Of a stretch of 64,000 nt of DNA, positions 7,645-27,884 are shown piece after piece; position 1 is the stretch's first letter; each line of letters opens with the position of its first letter. Made by a program: the position numbers and the translations under genes. The notes below the pieces were generated by a model, which saw only the letters and a program-made list of their open reading frames with translations, did not search any database and was not told where the DNA came from. Origin of the DNA: an uncultured bacterium (GTDB lineage: Bacteria; SAR324; NAC60-12); contig CAXGMD010000001.1 in NCBI GenBank assembly GCA_964010765.1, positions 32,001-96,000 on the forward strand, given 5' to 3'.

Positions 7645-7675
7645 TTAAATCTCCGAAAAAATGTTTGGTAATGAA

Positions 7676-8359: not shown

Positions 8360-8563
8360 TGGTGAAGATATTTTTGAAATGGATGCTCATGCTTTTTGCA
8401 TGAATATGTGCTGAAAAATCCATGCCTGAGCTGATTAAAAGTCAAGCCTCTTATACTGAGACCATCTGTCGATTAGTGCAAGCTCAAAGGATGGCTTGTT
8501 TGCTGCAAAGCTTTGAACCCAATCTATCAACTCACAACCAGTTTGCCACAAGGAATCCCCACC

Positions 8564-9010
8564 ATGAATGGCATTTGGAATCGCTGCCCAACAATATTTA
8601 ATCGACTATTCTTAGCATTCACAATCGCTTTATTCTTGGGCGGTATGGGTGGAGGAGATGAAAATCTCACTGGTGGGTTGCCTCTCCCTGAAAAAAACTT
8701 TGTTGTCGGTATCACTGATCGAACGGGGATGCAGACCGAATCCTCACGCTTAACTTGGGAGGGTAAAGTCCATTTTAGAGGGAAATACGGTGAGGCCACA
8801 GTAAACGTTCCTTTCGCAAAAATAAGCCAAGTCGACTTTAGACCAGCAAACACAGGAACTTCTTCCTATACAGTTGCGACAGTGACGCTGAACTCAGGAC
8901 AACAATTGGACCTGTCTCTAGAGAACCAGTCAAACGTGTATGCAGAAACCCCTTTTGGTGAACTGGAAATCAGTGTAGCCGATCTCCGTCAGTTGGATTT
9001 CTCCGAATGA
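8564..9010 (+). CDS. Hypothetical exported protein
   Basis: ATG at 8564 with AAGGA upstream. Hydrophobic N-terminus followed by a beta-rich domain. Overlaps the next gene by ATGA. Confidence 0.6.
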   Translation: MNGIWNRCPTIFNRLFLAFTIALFLGGMGGGDENLTGGLPLPEKNFVVGITDRTGMQTESSRLTWEGKVHFRGKYGEATVNVPFAKISQVDFRPANTGTSSYTVATVTLNSGQQLDLSLENQSNVYAETPFGELEISVADLRQLDFSE

Positions 9011-10260: not shown

Positions 10261-10361
10261 AAATCTCGATTACTGAAGGAATTTAAAATTATTGTCATAG
10301 TCTTCGCAGATTTTATTTTCATTGGCAGTTACACTTAGATCAAATTACATCAAAATCTTCC

Positions 10362-10748
10362 ATGCCAGATTTATCTGCTACAGAATATCCCACATTTTTT
10401 CAGAATCTCTCTCAAAGAGTTCAGGCTGAGGAAGTTTCATCGCTGCATGTCCTTGGCGAAGATTTCTTTAGCCTAGTCGATATTTTCAGTCAGCAACTCT
10501 TTGAGGAATTCCAGGGAGATCTGCTACTGTTGGAGATGGAACCAGAATCGTTCCTTTGGGAGCTTCAAGTACTGACCAATCAATTTCTTCGCAAATCGAT
10601 TGATTCCCCCCTTCAATTACGTCCCTTCTGCCGACAACTGCGACAACAAATGCAGAATCCTACCTTCGCTGATGAAATCTGCTCGATGCTGAAGAAAAAC
10701 TATCAGGATCATTTCTATCAGGTACCTCAGTCGCAACTCCTCGTTTGA
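10362..10748 (+). CDS. Hypothetical protein
   Basis: 128-aa ORF that fills the gap and ends 4 nt before the next gene. Confidence 0.6.
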   Translation: MPDLSATEYPTFFQNLSQRVQAEEVSSLHVLGEDFFSLVDIFSQQLFEEFQGDLLLLEMEPESFLWELQVLTNQFLRKSIDSPLQLRPFCRQLRQQMQNPTFADEICSMLKKNYQDHFYQVPQSQLLV

Positions 10749-10752
10749 CCTA

Positions 10753-11736
10753 ATGCCAGAACCCAAAACTGAATCTGAAGCGGAGTTGACCTGGGCACAG
10801 GCATGGAACAATGCGCCTGGTCCAAAATCAATGAGAGAGGCTCTCACTCTCTTTGGGAAGGGACTCGCGATGGGAACTGCAGACATCATCCCTGGAGTCT
10901 CAGGTGGCACGATCGCTTTCATTACTGGCATTTACCATCATCTCCTCTCAGCTATTTCCTCCATTAATTTGAGTTCAATCTGGCTTGGTTTACAGGGTAA
11001 ATTCAAAGAGGCCCTCGTCGAAATTCATCTGAGATTTCTAATTGTCCTCTTCGGTGGAATTTTTGTCGCTATTTTGTCAACTGCTCGCTTGATGCACTTT
11101 CTGCTGGCTAATTATCCTGTAGAAATTTGGTCATTATTCTTTGGGTTAGTGTTAGCCTCAATTTGGTACGTTGGCCGAGCAATTCCTAGCTGGAATGTAG
11201 CAGCTTTACTGACTACCACGGCGGGTGGACTTTTCGCTTACCAAGTTGTTGGGCTCATACCAATTCAAACCCCAAACTCGCCTCAGTTCTTATTTTTTTG
11301 TGGGTTAATTGCAATTTGTGCGATGATTCTTCCCGGGTTGAGTGGCTCATTCCTATTGTTGATTCTTGGCAAATATCAGTTTATCACGGGTGCCCTACGT
11401 TCCCCGTTTGATGATGGGCATTTAGAAGCATTGTTGGTTTTTACAGCAGGATGTCTTATTGGAATTCTGGGTTTCAGCAGGATATTGAAATTCTGCTTAC
11501 AGCGCTTTGAGCAGATAACGATGTGCTTATTGACTGGTCTAATGATCGGAGCAATGAGAAAGGTTTGGCCCTGGAAAGTAGTTATCGAGAGCGAACTGAT
11601 TAACGGAAAAGAATACGTTGTCCGTGAAGAAAATATCTTACCTGTATTGGATGCTAGTCTCTTTATGCCCTTGGTAATGTTTTTCCTTGGAATGAGCGCT
11701 GTGATTATTTTGGAACAGACAGCTCGTCAGCGATAA
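10753..11736 (+). CDS. DUF368 membrane protein (undecaprenyl-phosphate translocase family)
   Basis: Repeated motifs ADIIPGVSGGTIA and AMILPGLSGS; WPWK near the C-terminus. Confidence 0.9.
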   Translation: MPEPKTESEAELTWAQAWNNAPGPKSMREALTLFGKGLAMGTADIIPGVSGGTIAFITGIYHHLLSAISSINLSSIWLGLQGKFKEALVEIHLRFLIVLFGGIFVAILSTARLMHFLLANYPVEIWSLFFGLVLASIWYVGRAIPSWNVAALLTTTAGGLFAYQVVGLIPIQTPNSPQFLFFCGLIAICAMILPGLSGSFLLLILGKYQFITGALRSPFDDGHLEALLVFTAGCLIGILGFSRILKFCLQRFEQITMCLLTGLMIGAMRKVWPWKVVIESELINGKEYVVREENILPVLDASLFMPLVMFFLGMSAVIILEQTARQR

Positions 11737-12241
11737 CAATTCTTCCAACAGATCCCCGCAGACATCGTTCGCCATTCACCCAAGTGGCTTCCTGAAAATT
11801 CACTCCTGCTAATTCAAGAGGACGCTGAGAAAACTGATCAATATCAGACCCCTCAAGGTTGCTTCCCCAGAAGTTGGCTTGAAGCAGCTGCGCTCCCTCC
11901 CAAGTGGTTCTTCTGAAATCAGCGAATTTTGCCCAAGCCTTTTTTAAACAGGAGTGTCTGAGGGAAGCACCAACAAGGTAAGCCCCCCAGAGGTTGGCTC
12001 GGTGCAAGTTTGAAAAGTCCAGATTCGCATTTTGAAAATTAGCACCTTGGAGGTTTGCTTTCTCAAGATTGGCTTGCTGTAGATTTACCTCGGTAAAATC
12101 TGCACCACGTAAATCCTGCTGCCTTAAATCATTTCCACTTAGGTCCATTCCTTTAAAATTTGCTTGCATGCCTAAGTTGCCTTTGGAATTCAACCATTCT
12201 TGGTGGGTTTGTAATACGACCTGAATTTCCTCAAGAGACAT
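11705..12241 (-). CDS. Pentapeptide-repeat protein
   Basis: A(D/N)(L/F)xx repeats, e.g. ANLEK ANLQG ANFQN. Confidence 0.9.
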   Translation of the reverse strand: MSLEEIQVVLQTHQEWLNSKGNLGMQANFKGMDLSGNDLRQQDLRGADFTEVNLQQANLEKANLQGANFQNANLDFSNLHRANLWGAYLVGASLRHSCLKKAWAKFADFRRTTWEGAQLLQANFWGSNLEGSDIDQFSQRPLELAGVNFQEATWVNGERCLRGSVGRIVIADELSVPK

Positions 12242-12695
12242 CGACAGCCTCTTTACGTTTTTGTAGTGACTTTTTTTGTTGTTCCTTTGCCTGCTGACTT
12301 AAACATGCTTCTGGATGATGAATATTTTTTTCAAAGCAATTCCTGCGAATACTGTTCAGCCAGAGTGATTGTTCTCGTTTAGGTACCATTGCCAGAGTCA
12401 CAAGAGCTTCAAGGCGAGGGCCTTCTCCCATAGCGAGTTCTTCTGCAATCAATGGGTGCTCCTGCTGAATAAATTTATCCAGTGCTGCTCCCATAAACTC
12501 TTCTTTGGTCATCGTGGAGGAGCTTGTGCTGCTGCTGCTATACCAGGAACTCAACCCCATTCCTTTTTTCATGCCGGGAGGAGCCTCCATGTGAACTCCT
12601 ACACCAAATCCAAAACGAGTATTCCGATTGCCACAACCGATTAGCAGGAAGCAGCTCAGAAAAATCAAAGGCAGATAAAATCTTCGAAGATTCAT
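12231..12695 (-). CDS. Putative lipoprotein, DUF3015-like
   Basis: Lipobox LIGC, a Ser-rich linker, and EELAMGEGPRLEAL resembling DUF3015. Confidence 0.55.
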   Translation of the reverse strand: MNLRRFYLPLIFLSCFLLIGCGNRNTRFGFGVGVHMEAPPGMKKGMGLSSWYSSSSTSSSTMTKEEFMGAALDKFIQQEHPLIAEELAMGEGPRLEALVTLAMVPKREQSLWLNSIRRNCFEKNIHHPEACLSQQAKEQQKKSLQKRKEAVDVS

Positions 12696-12748
12696 CTTTG
12701 GGATTTTGCTTTAGATGTTGATAAGCATTTTCCTTGGTTGAGGAGAAA

Positions 12749-12925
12749 TTAATTAGTAGCTTTTGTGCAAAAGCAAACCGATCTCAAGTCAACCAATTTG
12801 AAATCGCCAGAGAAGGTGGCTTGAACATAGACCAAGCCCCCAAAAATCAGAAGATAGAGCAAAAGCCTCACAAAGAAACGTAAACGGGCACCAGTGTTCG
12901 TTGTTTCAACCTCAACCGACTTCAT
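12749..12925 (-). CDS. Small single-TM protein (58 aa) absent from the ORF track
   Basis: Manual translation: MKSVEVETTNTGARLRFFVRLLLYLLIFGGLVYVQATFSGDFKLVDLRSVCFCTKATN*. The ATG lies 5 nt after the lpdA stop. Confidence 0.6.
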   Translation of the reverse strand: MKSVEVETTNTGARLRFFVRLLLYLLIFGGLVYVQATFSGDFKLVDLRSVCFCTKATN

Positions 12926-12930
12926 AGCAA

Positions 12931-14703
12931 TTAAGCGGCTTTTGATGGAGTTTTTGATTTCTTCTTGGGCATGTACAGATCAGTGATGGTTCCTTCAAAA
13001 GCTTCTGCAGCCATGGCAAATGTTTCTGAGAGCGTTGGATGTGGATGAATGGTTGATCCGATATCAGAAGCGTCACAGCCCATCTCGATTGCCAAAGCAC
13101 CTTCCGCAATTAAATCTCCAGCATTGGGCCCCACGATAGCGACTCCTAGAATTTGATCGGTATGCTCATCAAAAATGACTTTCGTCATCCCTTCATCCCG
13201 CCCAAGGGCGAGAGATCGACCACTAGCAGCCCAGGGAAAAATTCCTTTGCCATAAGCAATCCCGTCAGACTTAGCTTGTTCTTCGGTTAATCCAACCCAA
13301 GCTACTTCAGGATCTGTGTAAGCCACTGAAGGAATCACACGCGCATCAAAATGAGATTTCATACCTGCGCAAACTTCGGCAGCCACTTTACCTTCGTGGG
13401 TCGCTTTGTGTGCGAGCATTGGTTGGCCAACAATATCGCCAATCGCAAAGATGTGAGGCACGTTAGTTTTCATTTGAGAATCTGTAGAAATGAATCCACG
13501 CTCATCAACAGCTACTCCCGCTTTGTCAGCACTGATTTTAAGGCCGTTCGGGACCCGACCAACAGAACTGAGAATTAAATCATAGAGCTGTGGCTCGGCA
13601 GGTGCCAATTTGCCTTCAAAAGTTACTAATAATCCTGCCTCAGATGCATCAACTTTGGTGACTCGGGTTTCCAACCAAATATTCTCATAGCGTTTACTGA
13701 TCCACTTTTCGTAGGGTCGCACAACGTCTCGGTCTGCTCCCATCATGAGTCCCTTCATCATCTCAACAACCGTTATTTCTGCACCCAACGCATGATAGAC
13801 TGTGGCCATCTCTAAACCAATGATACCTCCTCCGATTACGAGCATCTTTTTTGGTCGACTTCGTAATTCAAGGGCACCGGTTGAATCAACAATTCTTGGA
13901 TCATCGGGCAAGAATGGTAAGGAGACCGGCACCGATCCAGTTGCTATGATGGCTTTTTCAAATTTGATCGTCTTGGAACCGCCATCTTCACTTGCAACGC
14001 GAATATGAAATGGATCTAAAAACTCTCCATATCCTTCAACGACTCTGACCTTCCGCTGCTTGGACATTCCAGTCAAACCACCAACAAGTTTCCCAACAAT
14101 GCTATCCTTCCAGGAGCGTAGGGAGTCTATATCAATCTCAGGTGTTCCAAACTTGATCCCATGACTTGACATGGATTGGGCTTCCTCAATCACCTTTGCA
14201 GCATGAAGCAGTGCCTTTGAGGGAATGCAGCCTACGTTTAGACAAACTCCTCCAATTTTTCCTTTTTCAATCAAAATGGTGTCTAGTCCTAAGTCTGCTG
14301 CTCGGAAAGCTGCAGTGTACCCTCCAGGACCAGACCCCAAAACAACAACTTGTGCTTCAAGATCTGCTTTTCCTGAGTGAGTTGCTGCTTGAGGTGGTTC
14401 TTGCACAACGGAAGTAGTTTCCGGTGGTTTCTCAATAGTGTTCTTGCCCTCCGTTATAGATGCTGCTTCCATTTTGAGGATTGAGCTGCCCTCAGAAACC
14501 CGATCACCTACTTTCACCAGTAACTCTGAAACCACTCCTGCTTGAGGTGCGGGTACATCCATCGTGGCCTTGTCTGATTCAAGCATGATCATACTAGTCT
14601 CGGCCTCAACAGAATCCCCAGGTTTCACGAGGATCTCAATAATTTCCACATCCTGAAAATCGCCGATATCTGGGACACGGACTTCAATCACACTCATGGT
14701 CAA
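12931..14703 (-). CDS. lpdA: Dihydrolipoamide dehydrogenase with an N-terminal lipoyl domain
   Basis: Lipoyl motif [37 protein letters not shown]. Confidence 0.96.
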
Positions 14704-14832
14704 GCTCCGAATGGGTGGAACAAACTAGCAAGTTCTGGTTTCCAAAAATTCTGCTATCGGGTATGACATAGCCTTCACGGAGAAGCAAGTGACACATCTC
14801 CAGCAACTTAGAACCCTAGAAAGTAAATCGCC

Positions 14833-16053
14833 ATGCTTAGAATCATAAGATCTTTCCCGCCTTTGGGTTGGGTTCTGATAATTATCGTATTATTGATTGG
14901 TTGTACTTCGAGCACCACAACGGAGAACCCTAGACCCGTTTCAATAGCGGAGATTAATGCATTGAAGCTCGAATCGAGTCCTGATCTTGAGGCTTTACAG
15001 CGAGCACTGGGGCATTCTATTGAATATTATGAGCGGTTACCGACAGATCAACGATTTCAATATGGAAGTTTTGGGTATTCACCTGAGGAGATGATTGCTT
15101 CTCATCAGCACTTTTTGAGGATTCTTGATTTGCCTGAGGTGGAAAGACTTGAAAAACTTCAGCAAGATTTTTTGTGGTTCGAAAGTCTGAATGAGAAGAA
15201 TCAGGCTTTCTTTACTGGTTACTATGAACCTCTCTTGAAAGGTAGCTTGAATGAGTCAGAAAAATTTCCGGTCCCTTTATATGGAGTGCCTAGCGATCTG
15301 GTGACCGTCAATTTGAGAAACTTTAATGAGAAGTACGGTAATGGGATTTTACGTGGGAAAATCGTAGATCAAAAATTTGTCAAATATGATGATCGTGATG
15401 AGATTTCCTATCAGAATTCCCTTCAAGGTCGTGCCACTCCATTAGCTTGGGTAAACAATGACATTGAGCTGTTTTTCTTACAAATTCAGGGTTCTGGTGT
15501 GATTGAGTTGCCGAACGAAGTTCTTTATCGAGTTAACTACGCTGATCAAAATGGTCATCCTTACCGGGCTATTGGTAAAATATTACTTGGGGAAATCCCT
15601 AGGGAAAAAATGTCTTTGAAAGCACTGAAAGAATACCTTTATGATCACCCAGAGCGAGTGCAGGAAATCCTAAACTACAATCCCAGCTATACTTTTTTTC
15701 GACATATTCCCGGAGACGGTCCCTTGGGAAATATTGAAGTACCACTAACACCTGAACGCTCCATCGCAATGGATCATCGACTTGTGCCAAAGGGAGGATT
15801 GGTCTTCTACGAAACAAATCTGCCCTCAGAGATCTCACCTTCAGAGGAAATACTACAAAGATTCGCAGTTGTTCAGGATACAGGGGGGGCAATCAGAGGC
15901 CATGGAAGGGCAGATATTTTCTGGGGGAGAGGAACCCCCGCTGAAAAGATAGCAGGACCAATGAAAGAAAATGGCAGGATTTTCCTGCTGGTAGCACGTA
16001 AGGAAGTGTTGAATGCAGAGAGCGGGATATCAACTACAGTGGCAAAGAAGTGA
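14833..16053 (+). CDS. mltA: Membrane-bound lytic murein transglycosylase A
   Basis: Lipobox LIGC; motifs FTGYYEP, LQIQGSG, NPSYTFF and DTGGAIRGHGRADIFWG. Confidence 0.93.
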   Translation: MLRIIRSFPPLGWVLIIIVLLIGCTSSTTTENPRPVSIAEINALKLESSPDLEALQRALGHSIEYYERLPTDQRFQYGSFGYSPEEMIASHQHFLRILDLPEVERLEKLQQDFLWFESLNEKNQAFFTGYYEPLLKGSLNESEKFPVPLYGVPSDLVTVNLRNFNEKYGNGILRGKIVDQKFVKYDDRDEISYQNSLQGRATPLAWVNNDIELFFLQIQGSGVIELPNEVLYRVNYADQNGHPYRAIGKILLGEIPREKMSLKALKEYLYDHPERVQEILNYNPSYTFFRHIPGDGPLGNIEVPLTPERSIAMDHRLVPKGGLVFYETNLPSEISPSEEILQRFAVVQDTGGAIRGHGRADIFWGRGTPAEKIAGPMKENGRIFLLVARKEVLNAESGISTTVAKK

Positions 16054-16072
16054 TCGAATGAAAGGGGGAGTT

Positions 16073-16485
16073 ATGGTAACTCAATTTGAAATTGATGAGG
16101 GCATGTTAAATCATGCAGTTGAAAGCTTGCTTGGAAAAATCAGAACCAATCTAGATATCTCAATGCAAGTCTTGGAAGCAGTCCGCAATGAGCAGAGTGT
16201 TCAATTGAGGAATACCATGCAGGAAAATCAGAATAAGTCTATGTCATCACTGTCCGCAACTGGTCAACCAAAGATGATTTGGACGGAACTGATTCAACAA
16301 TCTGGAGAAAAAATTTCAGAGCGTTTCTGGAATTTCAGCTTCACACTTATCTCATGATGGAGTTGTCCTGGAGGCTACCAATGTTTTGCATGCTATCTCC
16401 AGAGGATTTTATTCGAGAAGTCCGCAAAATTCTTCCTTATGAGCAGGAGTTGGAAAAACGATTGGAAGGCGCCCCAAGGAGCTAA
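16073..16485 (+). pseudogene. Hypothetical gene split by a single-base frameshift (pseudogene or sequencing error)
   Basis: GGGGAG RBS and ATG at 16073. Two overlapping ORFs; the second frame is open from 16237, and adding one base gives a single ORF of about 137 aa. Confidence 0.45.
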
Positions 16486-16493
16486 CGAACAAC

Positions 16494-18005
16494 TCATTGA
16501 TCATCGGTGAGTTGCCAGAGAGTCAGATTGCGGTCAGAGTGCCGCATTCGATGTTGGAGCAGAGTTGTGAGGTATTTGTTGCAGACAGAAAGGTAAGCAG
16601 GATTTTCAGCAAGATTGGTAGTTTCATGCGGATCATTTTTCAAATCGAACAGTAGCGGAGGATGCTTGGCAAAATGAACATATTTGAAATCATCATCTCT
16701 CCATAGACAAAGTTGTTGATTTTCGAACCGCCTATCCTCGTCTCGCTCTACATGCCTCTGGGGCAGTGAACGCCAATCAAATTCACAAAACACCCCTGTT
16801 TTCCAGTCCTCAAGTCTTTCAGCCTGCAAATTAGGTAGTAAACTTCTACCATCCATCGCCAATGGAATCTCCTGGTCTAACCAAGCCAAAATCGTTGGTG
16901 TGATGTCAACATGTTCACTGAAGGCCGAAATGGTGATGCCATGACTGGCTGGGATTTTGGGATTCCGTAGGATCAGTGGAATATGCCATGATGAGTCGAA
17001 ACAGCCTCCCTTTCCCCACAAATGATGGTCGCCTAACTGCTCTCCGTGATCACTTGTGAAAATGATCAAAGTATCGTCCCACTGTCCTGTTTCTTTCAAT
17101 AAATCAAAAATCTTCCCAAGATTTTTATCAACCTCTGTGATCAACCCTAAGTAAACCGCTTTGGTACGGAGGATATCTTCATCACAAAGCCGAAGCATAT
17201 TTGCCTGGCTCCCAAAGTAATCCACTGAATCAATTTTTTGCTGCCAAAGTTCTAACAAAGGATGCATTGCCGCATCGCCCAAAACTGAGTTGCCTCTCTG
17301 TGGAAGAGGTAACTCTCTCCAATCATAAAGACGATTATAGGGCGCAGGTGCAATCAAGGGAGGATGTGGTCTCAATAGGGACAGATGAATGAACCAATCC
17401 TCGTTCCGATGATTGCGGATCGTATGGCAGGCATGATGGGTAAGGTAAGCAGTATCAGAATGCTCTGCAGCATAAAATGCAGGTTCGTCACAGAATCGGC
17501 CTTCCGTAATTTTCTCTGGAGAATGATGAAAGACTGATTCTGATGGATCTGGTCTTTCGTAGCCCTGATCCTCAAGCCAATCTAGCCAGCCCTCCAAATA
17601 CCCAAGGTTGAAATCAACAACCGATTTGAATCCGGGTAAAATACTTTCAAATGTGTCTAAACTAGGATCCTTGGCAGGGGCGCGTCTGGGATCCACCGAG
17701 GTGTCACTGTACCCGTAAAGTAAAGGCTCAATCCCAGCCTTGCGCACTTCCAAAGCGAGGTTGGTATGCCTGCGGTCAAGGGGAGTCCCATTGGTCACCG
17801 ATCGGTGATTACAAGCATAGAGCCCAGTGTGTAGCGATGCTCTTGAAGGGCCACAAGGAATTGCGTTCGTGAAGTGTTTGAGAAAGAGAGAACTCTCTGC
17901 TGCGAGGCCATCCAGATTTGGAGTTGGTTTGAGGGGATGCCCTGTACATCCAAGATGGTCGAACCGGAACTGATCAGCTGTGATCAGCAGAACCTTACGA
18001 GGCAT
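16494..18005 (-). CDS. Phosphonate monoester hydrolase-like enzyme (sulfatase/alkaline phosphatase superfamily)
   Basis: Motifs [18 protein letters not shown] (formylglycine motif), [27 protein letters not shown] and [15 protein letters not shown], recalled as closely matching PMH/PehA. Confidence 0.8.
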
Positions 18006-19674
18006 TGATTCCTCCCAAGTTATCGAGAGTTGGAATGGCAGAAATCAGGTTCCGTGTGTAGTCTTCTTTTGGTTCGAGAAAAATTTGCTCCACAGGGCCT
18101 TGCTCCACAATTTTGCCATGTTGCATGACGATCACTTGTTCGCAAAGGTTCGCGATTACACTGAGATCATGAGAGATGAAAAGAATTGTCAGGCCCAGTT
18201 CTTTCTGTAGTTCCTTCATGAGGTCAAGAATTTCAGCCTGGATTGATACGTCTAGTGCGGCAACAGCTTCATCTGCGACAATGAAGGAGGGACGACAAAT
18301 CAGCGCTCTGGCAATAGAGATCCGTTGTCTTTGCCCGCCTGAGAAAGCGTGGGGGAAACGTCTGAGATGCTCCAGGTCCAGTCGGCAACGTGTTGCAATT
18401 TCACGAACTCGCAAATCAGTTTCATTACGATTTTGTGTCAACTGCATGGCCTCCAAAGGTTCTGCGATAATATCTCTGACGGTCAAGCGTGGATTCAAAG
18501 AACCATACGGGTCTTGAAAAACCATTTGAGCATGTTGACGAAAAGCTTTTAGCGATGAGCCACTCAGGCCATTCAGATCAAATTTGTCATCCTTGAACTG
18601 ATAAATGATACTTCCTGTTTGGAAAGGAATGGCCTTTAGCAGAGCTCTTCCCAAACTGGTTTTTCCAGATCCACTTTCTCCTACAAGACCAATAATCTTT
18701 CCAGTTGGAATCTCAAAATTAGCTGCTGAAACAGCTGTAAAACTGCTCCGTTTTAGCAATCCAGCACTGCTTTCGTAAACAATATCCAGATCTTTTACCT
18801 TCACGAGAGAACTCGGAGGTTTCTGCACACTCGATTTCGTTGCTCCCTCACGTTTTAACTGTAGTTTTTTGAGACTAGGGACTGCTGCCAGCAAGCGCTT
18901 TGTGTATTTGTGAGATGGGGTCAGGAGTGTTTTTTGAACGGATCCTTCCTCTATAATCTGACCAGATTGCATGACACAAAGATCATCGGCCACTTTTCCA
19001 ATGACACCCAGATCATGTGTGATGAAAAGCATTGCCATTCCGAACCGCTGCCTAAGTTCAAGCAATAGGTCGAGTACTTGAGCTTGGATAGTTACATCAA
19101 GTGCCGTAGTGGGTTCATCAGCAATTAAAAGTCTGGGCTTGGTAGAGAGCGCTGTAGCAATCATAACCCGCTGGCGCATTCCTCCTGACAATTCATGAAC
19201 ATACTGGCGCAATCGCCGCTCTGGTTCGGTTAATCCAACTTGCCCAAGCCAATGAATAGCTTCTTGCTCCGCCTCGTGTTTGCCGAATCCAAGATGAAGT
19301 TGAATCGTTTCCACCATCTGCTTGCCAAGCGAAATTGCTGGAGCAAAACTGGCCATTGGCTCTTGGAAGATCATGGAGATGAGCCCACCCCTGAGCTGTC
19401 TCAAGGCTTTGGGGGATCGCAACTGCAAAACCGGAACGCTCTGTCCGCTATTGTAGAGATTGATTTGTGAGGGTGAGCGATAGATTGCGTTGTTACTATT
19501 CAGCTGCATGAGGCTTTTGGCAGTAACGGATTTGCCAGAACCACTCTCTCCCACCAAGCCAAGTACCTGACCGGCTTCAATATGAAAGCTGACGTTCTTG
19601 ACTGCTGTGAACCAGCCCTCTTCGGTCTTGAAGTCAACCTGCAAATGTTTCACATCAACAAGACGTTCGCTCAT
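17995..19674 (-). CDS. ABC transporter ATP-binding protein with two fused ATPase domains (DppD/F-type)
   Basis: Two GESGSGK Walker A motifs; LSGGMRQR and FSGGQRQR signatures. Confidence 0.95.
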
Positions 19675-20801
19675 CGACCTTCCTCAGAGTAAGGATCAGC
19701 CGCATCACGAAGCCCATCTCCGACCAAGACAAAGGCAAGAATCATCAGCACAAAAAACACGACAGGTATGTAGTACCAGAGGAGGCTCTGTTGTACTTCG
19801 ACGTCTTGTGCCTGGGAGAGCAATACACCAATGGAATTGACGGGTTCAGACAACCCCAAACCTAGAAAGCTCAGTGAAGTCTCTGCGAGAATGATATAAG
19901 GGACGTTGATGATAGTGTCGACGATGATATAGCTAAGGAAGCTAGGGATCAGATGCTTCCGAATGATTCGACTGGAACTAGAGCCTGAGAGTTTTGCTGC
20001 AAGAATATATTCCTGGTTGCGTTCTGCTAGCAGGTGAGTTCGTAGTCTTCGCGCTAAGGTGGGGAAATCGAATGCTCCAATAATAAAGGCAATCGCAAAA
20101 TAACGAGTTTCAGAGCTCCACTCATCAGGCATCGCCACGGCCAAGGCCAAATAAATAGGGATGGAAGGAATGACTCGAACAGCTTCGGTAAAGGTTTGGA
20201 GTATGGCATCAATGCGGCCCCCAAAATACCCTGAGATCCCCCCAACCAGTAACGAGGTTGTGAGCTTGATAGTCAGTGCAAGGAAGCCAATGGAAAGCGA
20301 AACCCAGATTGCATGAAGAGTTCTGCCAAAAATGTCTTTACCAGCCTTCTCAGTCCCAAAGAGATGGATTTGACCAGTCTCAATGCCAAAGAGGTGAAGG
20401 TTTGAGGTTAGGGTAAACTCTGTGAATCCCAAATTCAGGCTAATCAGCTGGTATTCCCAACTCCTAGTGAACCAAGTCAGGTATCGCTTTTTCTCACAAT
20501 TTTCTACCTGAACTCTTCGCAGGGTCTTTCGATCAAGTTGCTGTTCAAATGTGCACAGATAGGGTTTGGACCAACTACCATCCTGGTCCCGAAACTTTGG
20601 CATTTGCGGGGGTCCATTGATGTACTGTCGATTAGCACCTGCTGAATTTGGTTCATGAGGAGAAAGAAAAGAGGCAAAAAAGCCCGTTAGGATTAGTATA
20701 ATCAGGAGAATTCCTGCTGCGCAGGAGACGGGCTTCCTGAAAAATCGAGCCCGAATCAGAGCAAATTGACCAGCAGTATAGTAACTCTCTGCTCGCATCA
20801 C
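19671..20801 (-). CDS. ABC transporter permease (DppC/OppC-type)
   Basis: Motifs [23 protein letters not shown] and [10 protein letters not shown]. Confidence 0.93.
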
Positions 20802-21979
20802 TCTTCCTTCAAAACACTACGTTGAATTCTTGGATCGAAGAGAGCTAGCAGAACATCACTCAAGAAATTGACCACGACAATTGTGAGTGTAATCAGAAAG
20901 AGAATAGATGAGGCTAATTCCTGGTCATTCGTGAAAGCCAGGGCCGTCAGCAACAGTTGTCCGGCATCTGTCAAAAGTATGATGGAAGCGACAATGGGTA
21001 GATCGTTGAAGATTCTGTTGAAGTCAAATCCAATGGAGTTGACCAAAGGGCCAATGGAGTGTCGAACTGGATAACGCATCCAAAGGCCTGCTCCAGCTTG
21101 GCCTCGCGCTCGTGCAGCTGTAACATAGAGCTTATTTGCCTCATCAATGGTTAAGGCACGAACGGTCTGTAATTGTAGAGCTGTTGCGGACCATCCCAAG
21201 GTGAACACTGGCAACCAAAAATGCCACAAAAAGTCTCCAAATTTGGCAGTATTGAAGCCATCGTCAAGCCACCAAGCTTGGTCTCTGAATTCTTCGGAGA
21301 AAAGACCGATTGGCGCATCAAGATCCAGTTGGATGTAGAAGACGATGATTCCTAGAGCTATCAAAAAATTGGGTAATGCCAAGCCAAGGTATGAAACAAT
21401 GCGGAGCAGAGCCTCAAAAATCTTGGACATGACCAGTCCTAGACTTCTTCCGAATTTTTCACCTGCAGAACGGAGAGGATCATGATCGAAGAGAGGTTGA
21501 GTCATGATAACCGCAGATATCACTCCAAGAGGTATTGCTAGGGAATAAGCGAAAAGCAACCCGAGTGCACATACAGCCAAAGAAATTAGAAATCGATTCC
21601 CTAAAACCTGATGGACCGGAGCTCTTTTTTCACAGGAAAAACCAAGGTCTCCTTCCGTGACCAACCCATAAATCCATTTCCCCCAGCGTTCAGGTAACGA
21701 TCCATCTAATCCTCTCAGCACTCTTTCGGCTTGGATGTCTGCATCAGTGATTACCACTCCTTGTGTATTTTTATAACCAATCATTCTTGTTGCGCAGTCC
21801 CCTGGGACAGCTTCCATGACAGCAAAAATGACAATTGAAACCAAAAGAAGGGTAAAAAGTGCGAGCAGAAATCTCTCAAACAGAAACTGACCGATCAAGG
21901 AAAGCCGTGCCTGCCGAAAGAGAAATAGTCCAACCAAGAAGAGTGACCAGAAAAGCCAGGTCTCTGCTAGAAAACTCAT
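20798..21979 (-). CDS. ABC transporter permease (DppB/OppB-type)
   Basis: Motifs PGD, GDLGFS, ALPNFL and YVTAARARG. The ATG at 21979 is preferred over the GTG at 22027. Confidence 0.92.
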   Translation of the reverse strand: MSFLAETWLFWSLFLVGLFLFRQARLSLIGQFLFERFLLALFTLLLVSIVIFAVMEAVPGDCATRMIGYKNTQGVVITDADIQAERVLRGLDGSLPERWGKWIYGLVTEGDLGFSCEKRAPVHQVLGNRFLISLAVCALGLLFAYSLAIPLGVISAVIMTQPLFDHDPLRSAGEKFGRSLGLVMSKIFEALLRIVSYLGLALPNFLIALGIIVFYIQLDLDAPIGLFSEEFRDQAWWLDDGFNTAKFGDFLWHFWLPVFTLGWSATALQLQTVRALTIDEANKLYVTAARARGQAGAGLWMRYPVRHSIGPLVNSIGFDFNRIFNDLPIVASIILLTDAGQLLLTALAFTNDQELASSILFLITLTIVVVNFLSDVLLALFDPRIQRSVLKEE

Positions 21980-22063
21980 GCTGACTTTATGGCCAAAGAG
22001 AAGAGATGTTTGGAGGCTGGTCTGCACTCATGAGAATGCAGACCTCGTAAGCTCAGGTGAAAA

Positions 22064-24103
22064 TCAGTTTAAACTCCATTGAGGAGCTAGGTAGGGGAAA
22101 GTTCTGTAATAAGAATAGGAAGAAGTAATCGGTACTTTGAAGTTCGAAAGGTTGTTAGAAAAGTAGATTGGAGCTACGGCTTTGACAGTACCAATGAAGA
22201 ATAGATCGTCCACAGTACGCTGCGCAATCTTGCGTCCCAACTCATTTGAACGAGACGAACCAGCCGGAACAGTTGTAAATTCTCTGGCGAGTTTCTGCAT
22301 TTCATAGACGGTTTGGGGAGGCTGTACGCCCTCGCTTCCACCGGTATTTAAATATTGATCCCAAAGCATTGCGTTTCGTAATCCAAAGTATCCGGAGTAA
22401 GGTGGAACTATTTCTTGAGTATCACCCAAAAACACAGCGAGGGGTTCACCTTTGTTCCATACATGAACATCCAGTTCGTTGGCAGATTGAGATGCCCGGT
22501 ACTCATCAGAAGTGACTTCTTTAATGGATGTAGTTACCCCCACATCAGACCAATTTTGTGCAATGATCTCAGTAACCTGAGCAGCAACTCCCTGTGTAGC
22601 AAACTGAATGTTCAATCGGAGTTCCTGACCGTTCGGTAAGTCGCGATCCCCGTCACCATCTTGATCCTTTACGTTTGCTGCATCCAACAGTTTTTTTGCT
22701 CCGTCCTGATCAAACGTAATATTGGCATTGCGTTGATCGCTCGTGACGAAGGCAGCTGTGTCAGCATCAAAAGCAGTGTATTGGAGAGGTGTCCCCAAAC
22801 CAAAATAGGCAATCTCATTGATCTGGTCACGATTGATGGCATGACTCATCGCCTTGCGGAAATTCAAGTCATTGAAGACCGCGCGCTTTGACTCATCTTG
22901 CGTAGTAAGATTGAACGCGAAGACTGACATCCCAATGGTTGGTCGCAACTCAACCGAGTAATTCCCTTTCTCCGCATTTTGAAGCAGCACTGGACCGGAA
23001 GGCAGATTGACTGACTGAGCCTTGTAGCTCACTTCTCCAGCAACCATTTTTGCTGTCTGAACGTCTTCGTCTCCAATGTAGACTTCATTGATTTCGTTGA
23101 TGTACGGAAGCTGGTTCCCTTGGGAATCAACCATGAAGAAGTATGGGTTGGCAACAAGCCGACGCCCGTCAAGTGTATCCTCTACAACAATGAATGATTC
23201 AAGAGTCGGAGCCACAGCTGTGAAGCCAGCTTCAACCAATTTGTTGGCTTTGGCCGCATCCTTCAGTATAGGCTGAGGGACGTCTTTCCAATCGGATTGG
23301 CCGTAGTAAAAATTGATTACTTCATAGCCATCTTTGAAACCCAATGACTGAGCCAACTGGTTTGCATCTTTGTTCATGGACGGATGGAACTTACCCAGCA
23401 GGTGAGCTGGTTGGAATGGCTGAGCAAAGTCCGTTGCGAATTGGGCGATCAAACCTGGCTTTGGTGCGTTGAGAGTAAAGCGAACTTTGGAAGCGCTGAT
23501 TGCATCCACTTTCATCGGCTTGCCATCAGAAAGGAAGCGGTCTGCAGGAGATTCAATGATGTTTTTATCCATCACCATTCCATTGTACCAGAATGCTACA
23601 TCTTCGGCAGTAAATGGTTGACCATCTGACCATTTGTGGCCCTCACGAAGAGTGAAAGTTACTTCTGTAAAATCAGCATTCCAGTCCCAACTTTTCGCAA
23701 CATTTGGAACGATTGTAGCGAGGTCATCGGAAAAGCGAACCAAATTCACATGTCGCACAGATAGTAGGTCAGAAGTTCCTGCTTCTGTGGCTTTTGAAAT
23801 TCCACTAAAAACGCCACCATGTTTACCAATTTTTTGATAGGGCGTGATCACAAGCGGTTCGCTGGGAAGCCTCTGATCAACGCTAGGCAATCCTGGATTA
23901 CCCGCAATTCGCTTATTCAGGGAAGCTGCATCAGGATTTCCTGAAAAATTCAGCTTACAGTTGTGCGCAGTTTCAAATTCCTGCAAATCATATTGATTTG
24001 GATACTTACCTTTAGCTGCATCAGCTAAAACAGTCGGACAATTGGCAGAAGCGGTGGTTGCACAGGCCGCAACAGCCAGCCCAAGCAGGATGAATTTCTT
24101 CAT
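22064..24103 (-). CDS. ABC transporter substrate-binding protein, family 5
   Basis: Signal peptide; LPSVDQRLP, LREGHKWSDGQPFTAEDV, NPYFFMVDSQGNQLPYI and FRKAMSHAINR. GAGG RBS. Confidence 0.93.
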   Translation of the reverse strand: MKKFILLGLAVAACATTASANCPTVLADAAKGKYPNQYDLQEFETAHNCKLNFSGNPDAASLNKRIAGNPGLPSVDQRLPSEPLVITPYQKIGKHGGVFSGISKATEAGTSDLLSVRHVNLVRFSDDLATIVPNVAKSWDWNADFTEVTFTLREGHKWSDGQPFTAEDVAFWYNGMVMDKNIIESPADRFLSDGKPMKVDAISASKVRFTLNAPKPGLIAQFATDFAQPFQPAHLLGKFHPSMNKDANQLAQSLGFKDGYEVINFYYGQSDWKDVPQPILKDAAKANKLVEAGFTAVAPTLESFIVVEDTLDGRRLVANPYFFMVDSQGNQLPYINEINEVYIGDEDVQTAKMVAGEVSYKAQSVNLPSGPVLLQNAEKGNYSVELRPTIGMSVFAFNLTTQDESKRAVFNDLNFRKAMSHAINRDQINEIAYFGLGTPLQYTAFDADTAAFVTSDQRNANITFDQDGAKKLLDAANVKDQDGDGDRDLPNGQELRLNIQFATQGVAAQVTEIIAQNWSDVGVTTSIKEVTSDEYRASQSANELDVHVWNKGEPLAVFLGDTQEIVPPYSGYFGLRNAMLWDQYLNTGGSEGVQPPQTVYEMQKLAREFTTVPAGSSRSNELGRKIAQRTVDDLFFIGTVKAVAPIYFSNNLSNFKVPITSSYSYYRTFPYLAPQWSLN

Positions 24104-24341
24104 TGGGTGACCTCTCGGAAGGTTAGTGTTGTTGGGGTGTAAGCCTGGCCTCGGAAATAAAGGGACATTCCAAGTGGCGAATTAGTTACAGAGTATAATT
24201 CAGGAACAGTCAAGTATTGAGTGCAATTAAGTGTTCGACCTAATTCTACCTTAATATTTTCAAGAAAAAAATCAGCCGAAAACGACTTCTTAAAGTTTTT
24301 TTACAGTGATAAATGAAGTAAAATTTTGAGAAAAAAATTTT

Positions 24342-24358
24342 AACTGATTAGGTCAGTT
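24342..24358. promoter_or_regulatory. Inverted repeat AACTGA-N5-TCAGTT in the divergent promoter region (candidate operator)
   Basis: Perfect 6-bp arms, 25 nt upstream of the ATG at 24384, flanked by A/T tracts. Confidence 0.3.
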
Positions 24359-24383
24359 TTTTTACTCTCTTGGCCAAAGGCCG

Positions 24384-25511
24384 ATGAAGCAATTGAATAA
24401 AACAGACGTTGCGGTTGTTGGTGGGGGTATCATGGGTTTAGCCTTTGCCCTAGAAGCTATACGACGACAAAAAAAAGTTACTGTATTTGAAAGAAATCCA
24501 AGTGCTAGAGGAGCCTCTGTTCGAAATTTTGGGATGATCTATCCCCTAGGCATGAGACCAGGAAAAATCTTTGAAAGAGCACTGCGAACTCGCAATCTTT
24601 GGTTGGAGTTGGGCCAAAGCGCGAAGTTTTGGTTCAATCCCTGTGGTTCTTTATTGGTGGCTCGTTCCAAAGAGGAAATTGTAGTTTTGGAGGAATTCGT
24701 TTCTTCAAGACAAGACATCAAGGGGCTGCGTCTGCTGACTCTTAAAGAGGCTCTGAAGAAAAGTCCTGGTTTGGTTCAGGATGGGTTACTTGGTGCTCTT
24801 TGGAGTGAATCAGAAATCTGTGTTGATCCCCAGGATGCAATCCAAAAGATTTCTCTTTGGCTCGAGAATTGTGGTGTCAATTTCAAAAATTCAACGACAG
24901 TGACAGTTGTTGAATCTGGTCAACTGATTGCGAATGGAGAACAGTGGTACGCTGAACAGATCATTATCTGTTCAGGGTCAGATCTACAAACACTCTTTCC
25001 TAATGAATTTCGTAATAGCGGGTTGGTAAATTGCCAACTACAAATGTTTCGTACGAATGCACAGCCTTGTAGTTGGCTCTTAGGCCCTATGTTGGCCTCA
25101 GGATTGTCCCTACTGCATTATCCAGCTTTTACTGCTTTAAAGTCTTACCAAACGTTGAAGGATCGTTTAACCAAGGAACATCCAAAATTGCTGGAACTTG
25201 GAATCCATGTTTTGGTTTCTCAACACAGTCATGGAAGAATCACAGTTGGTGACTCCCATGAATATGGAGACACCCCAGCCATCTTTTATCAAAAAGAAAT
25301 TGAGGGCCTAATTAGGAACTATCTTAGCAGTTTTCTAACTTTGCCCGATGCACAGGTTTCAGAACGCTGGTTGGGCAATTATGTTAGCCACCCCTCTGGA
25401 GAACCCTGGATTTATAAGCCAACTGATGGAGTAATGCTTGTCAATGGGATTGGGGGAGTCGGTATGACAACCGGTTTTGGTCTCGCACAAGAAATTTTGC
25501 CAGAATGTTAA
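24384..25511 (+). CDS. FAD-dependent oxidoreductase, TIGR03364 (HpnW-proposed, aminophosphonate-associated) family
   Basis: Motifs VVGGGIMG, GASVRNFG, GxSLLHYxAF, VGDSHEYG and GIGGVGMT. Confidence 0.8.
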   Translation: MKQLNKTDVAVVGGGIMGLAFALEAIRRQKKVTVFERNPSARGASVRNFGMIYPLGMRPGKIFERALRTRNLWLELGQSAKFWFNPCGSLLVARSKEEIVVLEEFVSSRQDIKGLRLLTLKEALKKSPGLVQDGLLGALWSESEICVDPQDAIQKISLWLENCGVNFKNSTTVTVVESGQLIANGEQWYAEQIIICSGSDLQTLFPNEFRNSGLVNCQLQMFRTNAQPCSWLLGPMLASGLSLLHYPAFTALKSYQTLKDRLTKEHPKLLELGIHVLVSQHSHGRITVGDSHEYGDTPAIFYQKEIEGLIRNYLSSFLTLPDAQVSERWLGNYVSHPSGEPWIYKPTDGVMLVNGIGGVGMTTGFGLAQEILPEC

Positions 25512-25607
25512 TTCAAATTTGCTTCACCTTGAACTTGTTGGGATCTCCAGAGAAAATTTTCTGAACACAATCAACCTCCTTTTGTAAATCATCTTGGTTT
25601 GACTGAA

Positions 25608-26891
25608 ATGAAAGTAGCCATCTACAACAACCTCACAGACTTTCAACAAGCGACACCTCCAGAATTTTCTGACGAAATCAGTAATAGCGTTCGTGAAATT
25701 ATTGGCCAGGTGAGGGCTCAGGGTGACAAAGCTCTGAAAGATTTGACTAGCCGGTTCGATGGTGTCTCGCTGGATCAAATTCCTGTACCAACTGAATATC
25801 TAAAAGGCTGTCTAGAAAAAATGGATAAGCATCTTCGTTCGGTCTTAGAAGAGGCTGCAGATAATATTCGTCGTTTTCACCAAAGACAAAAGCAGCAGAG
25901 TCAGATGGAATTTGAGCCAGACGGGACTCTGCTAGGTTGGAAGGTCACTCCTGTTGATGCCGCAGGTGTTTATGTGCCGGGTGGGAGAGCGGTCTATCCT
26001 TCAACACTGCTAATGAACGTTATCCCGGCTCAGGTTGCTGGAGTGCCCAGACTGGTCATGGTGTCTCCTCCAAATCGAGAAACGGGCTTTCCCCATCATT
26101 TGGTTTGTGGGGCAGCCGCCTTGGTGGGCGTAGAGGAAATCTATGCAGTTGGCGGAGCACAATCTGTTGCTGCGCTTGCCTACGGTACAGAGTCCATCTC
26201 AAAAGTTGTCAAAATAACTGGACCTGGAAACGCATACGTTGCCGAGGCAAAAAGACAGGTATACGGTCTTGTAGGGATCGATTCGATTGCCGGCCCTAGC
26301 GAAATCATGGTGGTCTGTGACCGAGAGGACATTCCAGTAGAATTCTTGGTGAGAGATCTACTCTCCCAAGCTGAACACGATCCAGATGCAGGTGCGGTAC
26401 TGGTCACAACATCTCGAAGCCAAGCAGAGGCAGTTGCAAAAAGATTGGAAGAATTGATCCCATCCTTACCCAGAAAGGAAATTCTCGAAGAATCATTCCG
26501 ACAAAGATCCGGGATCATTGTGGCTAAAAATCTAGAGGAGATCTTTGACGCTATCAACGAGATTGCTCCCGAACATTTAGAAGTGCTGACTCAAAACCCT
26601 ATGGAGGATTTACATCGTATTCGTAACGCAGGGGCAATTTTCTTGGGTCCTCACACTCCTGAACCTGTGGGTGATTATTTTGCTGGACCGAACCATACGC
26701 TTCCTACTTCCGGTGCTGCCCGCTTTGCGTCGCCTCTTGGTGTCTCAGATTTTGTAAAAACGAGTTCAATCCTCTCTTATTCCAAGACAAAGCTCCAACA
26801 ACAAGGTCCCTCTGTAATGCGATTTGCTCAAGAAGAAGAGTTATTTGCACATGCAGAAGCTATCCGGGTTCGTTTGGAAAGTAGTTTTTGA
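25608..26891 (+). CDS. hisD: Histidinol dehydrogenase
   Basis: Motifs YVPGG, GPGNAYV, DSIAGPSE, QAEHD, APEHLE and GPNHTLPT. Start taken as the ATG at 25608. Confidence 0.96.
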   Translation: MKVAIYNNLTDFQQATPPEFSDEISNSVREIIGQVRAQGDKALKDLTSRFDGVSLDQIPVPTEYLKGCLEKMDKHLRSVLEEAADNIRRFHQRQKQQSQMEFEPDGTLLGWKVTPVDAAGVYVPGGRAVYPSTLLMNVIPAQVAGVPRLVMVSPPNRETGFPHHLVCGAAALVGVEEIYAVGGAQSVAALAYGTESISKVVKITGPGNAYVAEAKRQVYGLVGIDSIAGPSEIMVVCDREDIPVEFLVRDLLSQAEHDPDAGAVLVTTSRSQAEAVAKRLEELIPSLPRKEILEESFRQRSGIIVAKNLEEIFDAINEIAPEHLEVLTQNPMEDLHRIRNAGAIFLGPHTPEPVGDYFAGPNHTLPTSGAARFASPLGVSDFVKTSSILSYSKTKLQQQGPSVMRFAQEEELFAHAEAIRVRLESSF

Positions 26892-27137
26892 TGTGAATCC
26901 TTCCAGAATTTTTTCATCTCAATCCAATCTGCTCTCTTTTCTCTTCTTCTCAGCCTCCTCTCTGCGTAGGTTATTCTGGATCATTTGATTTTCTTACTTA
27001 GAACGTATTATTTTAGTAAAATTATTCTGTAATAATTGTAAAATACAGAAATTTATGTAAGGTCTATTATAACTTAAGAAAGTAGATAGTTTTTATTTAA
27101 GTCAAATATTATATAAGAATCTTACAAAAAAATTTAC

Positions 27138-27884
27138 GTGGAAAGAAAAAAATTATTACTGCTTGAAGAGAGTTCAGAGACAGCAAAAAAATTGATGCCT
27201 TCTCTGAATACCAAATTTGAAGTGACTTGGGTTAGTGGTGGACTTGATGCGATGTTGCTATTCGGGTATCAAAACTACCAAGTCTTGATTCTCGAGACAA
27301 ATCTGCCTGATACTGATGGTTTGCAGGTGATTCGTACCATCCGAAAGTATGGATTTACGTTACCAATAATTATATTGAGCGAACGAGAAACTGCTCAGGA
27401 CAGGATAGTTGGTCTGCAAGCTGGTGCTGATGACTACCTTACTAAACCGGTTTCTTTGCAAGAGTTGATGTTGCGGCTGGAAATTCTTATAAGGAGAATA
27501 GGACTCTCAGAAGAATCTGCAAAGGGTTGCGTGCTTAGAGAAATAAACTTTCCTTCATCAGAGTTGCGTGTTGGTGATGTGATAATTCATCGTACAAATC
27601 GAACAGTGAAGCGAGCCGGATCCTCCATTGAATTAAGGAAAAAAGAATTCGAACTTCTAGAATTGTTAATGGAGCATCCTAATGAGGTGATGAGTAAGCA
27701 ACGAATTATGGACACACTTTGGGGACATGGACTGGATGCAAATGAATCGAGAGTCATTGACAATCACTTGTGCCGATTACGAGCGAAACTTGATAAAGGA
27801 TATGAGAAGAAGTATATCAGCACCAAGCGAGGAGCGGGCTATACGTTTGTAAATCAAGAAGATGAGAAAAGAGTTATTATGTAA
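27138..27884 (+). CDS. OmpR/PhoB-family response regulator with an atypical receiver domain
   Basis: GADDYLTKP, KEFELL and RGAGY (winged helix). The phosphoacceptor position reads ILETNLP (Glu53). Confidence 0.9.
   Translation: MERKKLLLLEESSETAKKLMPSLNTKFEVTWVSGGLDAMLLFGYQNYQVLILETNLPDTDGLQVIRTIRKYGFTLPIIILSERETAQDRIVGLQAGADDYLTKPVSLQELMLRLEILIRRIGLSEESAKGCVLREINFPSSELRVGDVIIHRTNRTVKRAGSSIELRKKEFELLELLMEHPNEVMSKQRIMDTLWGHGLDANESRVIDNHLCRLRAKLDKGYEKKYISTKRGAGYTFVNQEDEKRVIM

Follow-up and report, generated by a model that had tools for sequence, protein, structure and literature searches.

2-Aminoethylphosphonate (AEP) occurs in nature mostly in esterified form, in lipids and glycans, and to our knowledge all characterised AEP catabolic routes and importers start from free AEP. 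The subject of this study is a locus of an uncultured SAR324 bacterium (GenBank assembly GCA_964010765.1, contig CAXGMD010000001.1) that lies at positions 16494 to 25511 of a 64,000-nucleotide stretch, here called the window. It encodes a family-5 ATP-binding cassette (ABC) importer, a putative phosphonate monoester hydrolase (PMH) and a predicted flavin adenine dinucleotide (FAD)-dependent amine oxidase. The evidence supports the original prediction, made from the sequence alone, that esterified aminophosphonates would be the cargo of this system, and it is reasonably probable that the locus serves to import AEP-type esters, to cleave them in the cytoplasm and then to oxidise the product to phosphonoacetaldehyde.

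Several described systems resemble parts of this locus. In Escherichia coli, UgpBAEC imports an intact phosphorus ester, which is cleaved by the cytoplasmic glycerophosphodiesterase UgpQ. The same order of events, import of the intact ester and then cytoplasmic cleavage, is proposed for the window locus; however, the binding-protein and esterase families of the two systems are unrelated, and the Ugp substrate is a phosphate diester and not a phosphonate ester. PMHs were first found through a glyphosate ester and synthetic esters. According to the available parts of two papers (PMC5488252, PMC5649143), the PMHs with solved structures were characterised on synthetic esters, and in vitro these enzymes have phosphodiesterase activity as good as their phosphonate monoesterase activity, as well as weak sulfatase activity; the second paper speculated, in the portion seen, on the release of phosphonates from marine polysaccharides by a PMH-like enzyme. 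The binding proteins AepX, AepS and PhnS carry pfam13343, and this is the only family of AEP binding protein described by Murphy et al. (2021, PMC8316502). Like AepXVW, AepSTU, PhnSTUV and PhnCDE, the window importer is an ABC importer encoded alongside an AEP catabolic gene, but it belongs to another transporter family, with a PF00496 binding protein of 679 amino acids, long permeases, a fused ATPase and no pfam13343. The AEP clusters given in the available text of Zangelmi et al. (2023, PMC10590968) are pbfD-phnX, phnW-phnX and phnW-phnY-phnA. The window oxidase classes with TIGR03364/PbfD, and relatives of the window locus hold pbfD-phnX or phnW-phnX in one operon; the locus differs from these clusters in that its pbfD stands without phnX or phnW, with PhnY and PhnA encoded on another contig, and in having, in addition, an ester hydrolase and a family-5 importer. 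The features of the locus, with the sources of each assignment (ORF, open reading frame), are as follows.

22064..24103, minus strand: substrate-binding protein of family 5 (PF00496), 679 amino acids (ORF map, Pfam, NCBIfam)
20798..22027, minus strand: ABC permease, DppB/OppB-like, 409 amino acids (BPD_transp_1 and BPD_transp_1_N)
19671..20801, minus strand: ABC permease, DppC/OppC-like, 376 amino acids (BPD_transp_1 and OppC_N)
17995..19674, minus strand: fused double ATPase, 559 amino acids (two ABC_tran domains and oligo_HPY)
16494..18005, minus strand: putative Asp-type PMH/phosphodiesterase (D-PMH), 503 amino acids, predicted cytoplasmic (Pfam, NCBIfam, alignment, tree)
24104..24383, no strand: divergent AT-rich spacer of 280 bp between the importer operon and the oxidase gene (sequence)
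24384..25511, plus strand: predicted PbfD-family (TIGR03364) FAD amine oxidase, 375 amino acids (Pfam, NCBIfam)
19105..25098, no strand: segment absent from the deletion allele of related SAR324 genomes (junctions in loci L003 and L005)

The four family-5 ABC genes and the gene for the sulfatase-fold hydrolase had been proposed to form one operon with stop/start overlaps, and the ORF map agrees to the base. The binding-protein gene and the first permease gene are 36 nt apart, the two permease genes overlap by 4 nt, as do the second permease gene and the ATPase gene, and the ATPase and hydrolase genes overlap by 11 nt, with a GGAGG within the ATPase gene 6 nt upstream of the hydrolase ATG. Translational coupling of the PMH gene to the ATPase and importer genes is established, and because of this anatomy the hydrolase would be expected to act on the cargo of the importer. 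The TIGR03364 oxidoreductase gene is divergent across the 280-bp spacer, again as proposed. Both promoters presumably lie in this spacer; a scan of positions 16000-27200, which included no Pho-box search, gave no usable consensus promoter or terminator there, and the scanned region had fewer sites than its shuffles (9 where the shuffles averaged 13.5, and 7 where they averaged 11.3).

The hydrolase has the PF00884 (Sulfatase) domain at 164.4 bits, and its top named family is PehA (NF045661) at 537.7 bits. This score is under the equivalog cut-off of 900, and the sequence places the enzyme in a subclade related to PehA and not in the PehA equivalog itself. Among solved structures it scores 420 bits against 2w8s (BcPMH/PehA), 406 bits against 2vqr (RlPMH, with about 41% identity), 401 bits against 4uph and 372 bits against 4upk, compared with about 200 bits against the related arylsulfatases 4upi and 4upl and 120 bits against the top choline sulfatase. 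It shares with RlPMH and BcPMH/PehA (SulfAtlas subfamily S1_0) the fold, the length, the C-x-P-x-R motif and the lack of a signal peptide. When aligned with RlPMH (reference sequence from plasmid pRL9 of Rhizobium johnstonii 3841), the formylglycine motif C51-G-P-S-R55 corresponds to C57-x-P59-x-R61. At the other positions that we take to be catalytic in RlPMH, D11, Q12, N72, Y99 and D101 align with D12, Q13, N78, Y105 and T107, while H214, D319, H320 and K332 align with H218, D324, H325 and K337; all are retained except that D101 stands for T107. According to the available part of PMC5488252, PMHs are marked by Asp or Thr at a site flanking the nucleophile and by Tyr two residues earlier, where arylsulfatases have His and Lys, and most PMHs are of the Asp type. 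Y99 and D101 follow the PMH pattern, unlike the arylsulfatase Lys/His. The motifs named in the original prediction are visible in the alignment, and the scores, the Tyr/Asp pair and a tree that groups the enzyme with phn-linked PMHs set it outside the true sulfatase clade; it is accordingly classed, by sequence, as an Asp-type PMH and not a sulfatase. Since residue 3 already aligns to the start of the PMH fold, so that the N-terminus is the catalytic domain, the enzyme is predicted to have no signal peptide and to be cytoplasmic, as had been suggested; the position of the GGAGG before the ATG agrees with this start.

The oxidase scores 394.2 bits against TIGR03364 (NCBIfam cut-off 285.1) and 146.6 bits against PF01266, has the N-terminal dinucleotide-binding sequence VAVVGGGIMG, and is assigned by these matches to the PbfD family. 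The PDB search returned distant oxidases only, at 39 bits or less, which say nothing on specificity. In the available text of PMC10590968, TIGR03364 corresponds to PbfD, members from Acinetobacter and Mariniblastus oxidise N-methyl-AEP and AEP to phosphonoacetaldehyde with O2, and PbfD homologues also occur outside phnX or phnW-phnY-phnA clusters. The window has neither phnX nor phnW-phnY-phnA clustered with its pbfD.

The importer has the family-5 architecture throughout, with a PF00496 binding protein, two BPD_transp_1 permeases and an ATPase with an oligo_HPY tail. The binding protein, predicted to be periplasmic, carries a Sec-type leader (MKKFILLGLAVAACATTASA), and PF00496 (SBP_bac_5) is the only Pfam family found in it. 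Relatives of the same length, with 47-67% identity, occur in marine Gamma- and Alphaproteobacteria, and the protein is classed by these matches as a member of a conserved marine family of about 680 amino acids. The databases name these relatives only as generic ABC proteins or as "peptide/nickel transport system substrate-binding protein", and the parts of the importer match Opp, Dpp and Nik models, as would be expected if this were a generic peptide or nickel importer that adjoins unrelated enzymes by chance. This explanation is very improbable. No part has an equivalog-level Opp, Dpp, Nik, Gsi or Yej match, all scores being far under the curated NCBIfam cut-offs (Opp4A 108.9 versus 650, DppA 39.7 versus 1005, and for the fused ATPase its top model YejF 531.8 versus 834), and in the PDB search the classical peptide binders DppA and OppA are distant from the binding protein, at about 38 bits or less. 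In addition, the stop/start overlap with the PMH gene and the recurrent esterase and phn neighbours described below are unexpected for a housekeeping peptide importer. The top solved structure is 5ipw (217 bits), labelled a putative oligopeptide-binding protein. The top-scoring solved relatives with a named ligand class are SPH1118 (7veq, 206 bits, full-length alignment), the alpha-galactoside-binding 6epy and the chitin-oligosaccharide-binding 1zty; SPH1118 of Sphingomonas is a pectin-oligosaccharide binder. These named relatives handle oligosaccharides, which hints at a sugar or polyol as the alcohol of the ester. They have low sequence similarity to the binding protein, and phosphonate genes are not associated with any of them.

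The remaining phosphonate genes were sought in the genome assembly of the window (3.86 Mb, 266 contigs, 92% complete). The prediction that the window holds no phosphonatase, C-P lyase or formylglycine-generating enzyme (FGE) gene extends to the whole contig C1, which has no phnX, phnJ or FGE-domain gene. A look for phn genes elsewhere in the genome had been advised; phnW, phnA and phnY were found above their cut-offs in one cluster on contig C16 and phnJ (C-P lyase) on contig C71, but no phnX or phnX-like gene scores above cut-off in the genome. Eight FGE-domain hits, all on contigs other than C1, mean that an enzyme for formylglycine maturation of the PMH could exist. Both the PMH clade of the window and PbfD are single-copy in the genome. 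PhnY and PhnA are a plausible sink for phosphonoacetaldehyde made by PbfD. The phnW-phnA-phnY cluster (L071, G000:C16:21000-40999, 5792-15390) has a hormone-sensitive-lipase-family esterase and an SDR protein on its flanks, opposite a divergently encoded Ugp-like (CUT1) ABC importer; this arrangement may be a second ester-type phosphonate uptake route.

In the mechanism proposed, the family-5 binding protein would capture a small, soluble compound with a P-O-C ester bond between AEP or N-methyl-AEP and an alcohol, most likely a sugar, a polyol or some other piece of a phosphonoglycan or phosphonolipid head group. Import of the ester would fall to the two permeases with the fused ATPase, and the cytoplasmic Asp-type PMH, from the last gene of the operon, would cleave it and free the aminophosphonate. 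The divergently encoded PbfD oxidase would convert the aminophosphonate to phosphonoacetaldehyde, from which PhnY and PhnA, encoded on the other contig, would produce acetate and phosphate. Gene order, coupling, the family of each part and the recurrence described below are observed, while the ligand, the enzyme activities in the SAR324 host and the link to PhnY and PhnA are inferred. Membership of the hydrolase in the PMH family argues for a phosphonate monoester or a phosphodiester as the substrate, and the recurrent phnW or pbfD and phnX or phnYA neighbours of the relatives, together with their regulator type, argue that the phosphorus moiety is AEP-like.

The importer recurs with esterases and AEP-catabolic genes in three lineages. 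An alignment of 11 relatives of the binding protein retrieved 80 loci, of which 56 are well flanked, the binding-protein gene having at least 6 kb on its left and at least 9.5 kb on its right. Neighbours were counted at a tblastn E of 1e-12 or lower and at least 50% query cover, and for PhnW additionally at least 40% identity. The neighbours among the 56 well-flanked loci, which are related and not independent samples, are as follows.

20 of 56: PF01663 esterase, HAD and LysR
8 of 56: PMH, PhnX, PhnW and LysR
8 of 56: nothing relevant nearby
6 of 56: PF01663 esterase, HAD, PhnX, PhnW and LysR
4 of 56: PMH, PhnX, PbfD and LysR
3 of 56: LysR only
2 of 56: PF01663 esterase only
1 of 56 each: five other neighbour combinations

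An esterase of the alkaline-phosphatase superfamily adjoins the importer in 45 of these loci, being a PMH in 13 and a PF01663 enzyme (277 amino acids) in 32; PhnX is present in 20 of the 56, as is PhnW or PbfD. In Alphaproteobacteria (Roseibium, Ruegeria, Shimia, Thalassobius, Cohaesibacter and Amorphus) the order, on one strand, is binding protein, two permeases, ATPase or ATPases, PhnW or PbfD, PhnX and PMH, while in Gammaproteobacteria it is (PhnW-PhnX)-PF01663-HAD-importer-LysR. The top match of the LysR genes is TIGR03339, the LysR family of AEP catabolism, at 202 and 178 bits (cut-off 341). The PF01663 enzyme and an HAD-IB phosphatase precede the importer at, for example, L080 8394-9970, L086 8406-10008 and L092 8450-10008, and in the PDB search these two proteins matched only a distant NPP (33 bits) and an uncharacterised protein; together they look like a non-orthologous replacement of the esterase step of the PMH. 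The independent facts in this comparison are three gene orders, two unrelated esterases and three routes (phnWX, pbfD-phnX and phnWAY). Co-conservation of importer, hydrolase and oxidase, on which the original prediction could have failed, is seen at the functional level, in one-strand operons with pbfD-phnX-PMH (4 of 56) or phnW-phnX-PMH (8 of 56) and, in another SAR324 genus, beside phnW-phnA-phnY, but not at the level of the oxidase, which is often replaced by PhnW; the conserved element is therefore the step from AEP to phosphonoacetaldehyde and not the oxidase itself.

Some observations weigh against an importer for AEP-type esters coupled to the PMH. The pbfD gene is divergent from the importer operon and outside it, the hydrolase falls short of the PehA cut-off, the genome lacks phnX, and the link to PhnY and PhnA spans contigs. 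Loci with nothing relevant or only LysR nearby make up 8 and 3 of the 56. In another SAR324 genus (G046, G048) phnW-phnA-phnY comes directly after a homologous importer (53-54% identity), in an operon without an esterase, and the PMH homologue of that genus (46% identity) lies away from the importer, after gcvT-gcvH. In three genomes of the window's own genus the importer and pbfD are lost by one deletion while the PMH is intact, so the PMH is not strictly dependent on them. The 20 gammaproteobacterial loci with esterase, HAD and LysR have no phn gene within 10 kb, and these also suit a phosphodiester substrate.

The arrangement in G046 and G048 means that the importer might carry free aminophosphonate. 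The family-5 system could then be an importer of a new type whose cargo is a free aminophosphonate (AEP, N-methyl-AEP or a hydroxylated relative), with the PMH as an accessory enzyme that acts on a different ester or as a passenger, which would be consistent with the retention of the PMH in the deletion allele without its importer and with the importers for AEP itself that AEP clusters normally include (PMC8316502 and the available part of PMC12366243). Against this, the esterases that adjoin the importer in 45 of the 56 loci come from two unrelated enzyme types, a pattern that suggests selection for ester cleavage. The alphaproteobacterial PMH gene ends an operon of phnW or pbfD and phnX, in which free AEP would need no esterase, and in the window the PMH and ATPase genes overlap. 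Ligands of di- and trisaccharide size are bound by those solved relatives that have a named ligand; the top structure, 5ipw, is only a putative oligopeptide binder. Import of free aminophosphonates is for these reasons considered unlikely.

The same deletion allele shows how the locus varies within SAR324. Loci L003 (2112) and L005 (212) join window base 25099 to base 19104 at an identical point, with 5,994 bp gone; the 5' part of the ATPase gene, both permease genes, the binding-protein gene, the spacer and 715 nt from the start of pbfD are removed, and the PMH is intact. In two of the genomes with this allele the pbfD remnants contain stop codons. Within one genus, therefore, the module is polymorphic. 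PMH-like genes are present in 37 of the 88 genomes of the SAR324 phylum set. Among the 8 other genomes of the window's genus, only G054 and G056 have both pbfD and the binding-protein gene intact; G050 and G052 have pbfD remnants carrying stop codons, and G051 and G057 have no match to pbfD or to the binding protein. In G055 (G055:C278:2-2469) the binding-protein gene has an in-frame TGA and pbfD is represented by fragments with two TGA codons, which could be decay, sequencing error or recoding. In the other SAR324 genus the position of the PMH homologue directly after gcvT-gcvH is seen at L157 7206-10759 and L159 7653-10919, and a plasmid of Aliiroseovarius (L155) has a lone PMH 8 kb from gcvT-gcvH-gcvP.

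The relatives found through the hydrolase number 50 loci, five of them from SAR324 (L001-L005). L004 has the full gene order, L001 ends with its contig inside the first permease gene, and L002 is a 2.7-kb contig with the hydrolase only. The nearest PMH outside SAR324 (L006, 53% identity) is on an alphaproteobacterial contig with a one-strand row of pbfD (383.6 bits), phnX (314.5 bits, cut-off 220) and PMH, which speaks for the proposed route. No phnX, phnW or pbfD was found near the 36 loci L007-L042, which comprise Reyranella/Verminephrobacter-type loci and L040-L042, or near the RlPMH locus L153; among these 37, L012 has only a weak 33% PhnY-like match about 6 kb downstream. Several of L007-L042 and RlPMH adjoin other family-5 ABC genes; in L153 (8992-16204, pRL9) genes for a family-5 binding protein, two ATPases and two permeases come after the PMH, and the regulator is of the LacI type. 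The pairing of PMH with family-5 importers is therefore wider than the phosphonate context. In a maximum-likelihood tree of 43 of the 61 rows (17 near-duplicate Reyranella-type rows and one duplicate contig were excluded; midpoint root, no outgroup), the SAR324 sequences and L006 form a clade with support of 100/99, with long branches meeting at the L006 join, and all phn-linked PMHs are in one half with support of 94/93, which is under the star threshold; the RlPMH clade (99/100) is apart from this half. RlPMH, in its separate half of the tree, also differs from the window hydrolase in having Thr107 where the latter has D101.

The importer and esterase could instead handle an ordinary phosphodiester or sulfate ester, such as a sugar- or polyol-phosphoethanolamine diester or a sulfated oligosaccharide, with phn and pbfD as neighbours only through shared phosphorus-scavenging islands. 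The archetypal RlPMH adjoins a family-5 importer with no phn genes nearby, PMHs are equally good phosphodiesterases and weak sulfatases in vitro (PMC5488252 and PMC5649143, in the parts available), and in the 20 loci with a PF01663 enzyme, HAD and LysR a phosphatase would be sensible after diester cleavage. However, phnX is within 10 kb of the importer in 20 of the 56 loci, in gene orders of three kinds and in three lineages, mostly gapless and with a shared strand, and the regulators are most like the AEP-catabolism LysR family. The lack of phnX, phnW and pbfD in the 37 loci of the RlPMH and Reyranella types and L040-L042 indicates that the two PMH clades differ in context. An ordinary diester or sulfate ester as the cargo is improbable, though it deserves some weight; uptake and cleavage of an AEP-type ester is the reading retained here.

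Other observations concern the surroundings of the locus and its presence in RNA libraries. A role in the pathway was considered for the hisD gene beside pbfD (25599-26891, same strand, 87 nt downstream, 509 bits to TIGR00069) and was rejected, since the gene has a full histidinol dehydrogenase score and its position is kept in the deletion allele. The genome has three genes of the histidinol dehydrogenase family (window 25599-26891, L071 17929-19287 and G000:C20:30981-32186), and another of these three, at 403.5 bits, has the phnWAY cluster at a distance of about 7 kb. In six metatranscriptome runs 40-54% of the sampled words are present, and contigs from four runs cover every gene of the locus; with DNA carry-over possible, this cover shows presence in RNA libraries only and is weak evidence. 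Contigs in two runs (X15, X18) bridge the hydrolase/ATPase junction, and one contig crosses the divergent spacer, as would be expected from transcription and from DNA carry-over alike. These contigs give no ranking of genes and no strand, and the gaps in the cover of run X16 carry no weight. At 16179-16419, between an mltA-side ORF and the end of the hydrolase gene, contigs of three runs skip 239 nt, probably because of a strain indel in this intergenic region.

The SAR324 pangenome paper gives only PhnCDE, PhnA, PhnX and PhnJ as the phosphonate genes. In the available part of a 2026 paper (PMC13608971), pmh adjoins phnW-phnX, and is also in a phnWYA cluster, in algal-associated isolates, without follow-up. 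Neither monoester hydrolases nor sulfatases came up in term searches of the accessible text of the review PMC10574752 and of the PbfA, PbfD, PbfF and PbfG papers, and the accessible texts of PMC10590968 (main article), PMC10574752, PMC12366243 and PMC13576164 mention no ester hydrolase or family-5 importer. Searches of the openly accessible literature, with the main article of PMC10590968, found no account that associates importers of this binding-protein family with phosphonates.

The locus and its relatives provide concrete candidates, a family-5 importer and a cytoplasmic Asp-type PMH, for bridging esterified to free AEP. It is possible, although the case falls a little short of even, that the importer with the binding protein of about 680 amino acids is the first dedicated uptake system for esterified aminophosphonates (sugar, polyol or lipid head-group fragments with AEP or N-methyl-AEP), in marine Alpha- and Gammaproteobacteria and SAR324, and that the Asp-type PMHs, with the PF01663 enzymes in Gammaproteobacteria, are the missing enzymes that release AEP from natural conjugates. 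If this is true, the PMH family gains a physiological role and the marine phosphonate cycle gains an entry step. Some carriers, such as Roseibium and Ruegeria, are culturable, which makes the question directly testable. For SAR324, an abundant lineage of the deep ocean, the module would open a further way to obtain phosphorus and nitrogen in organic form.

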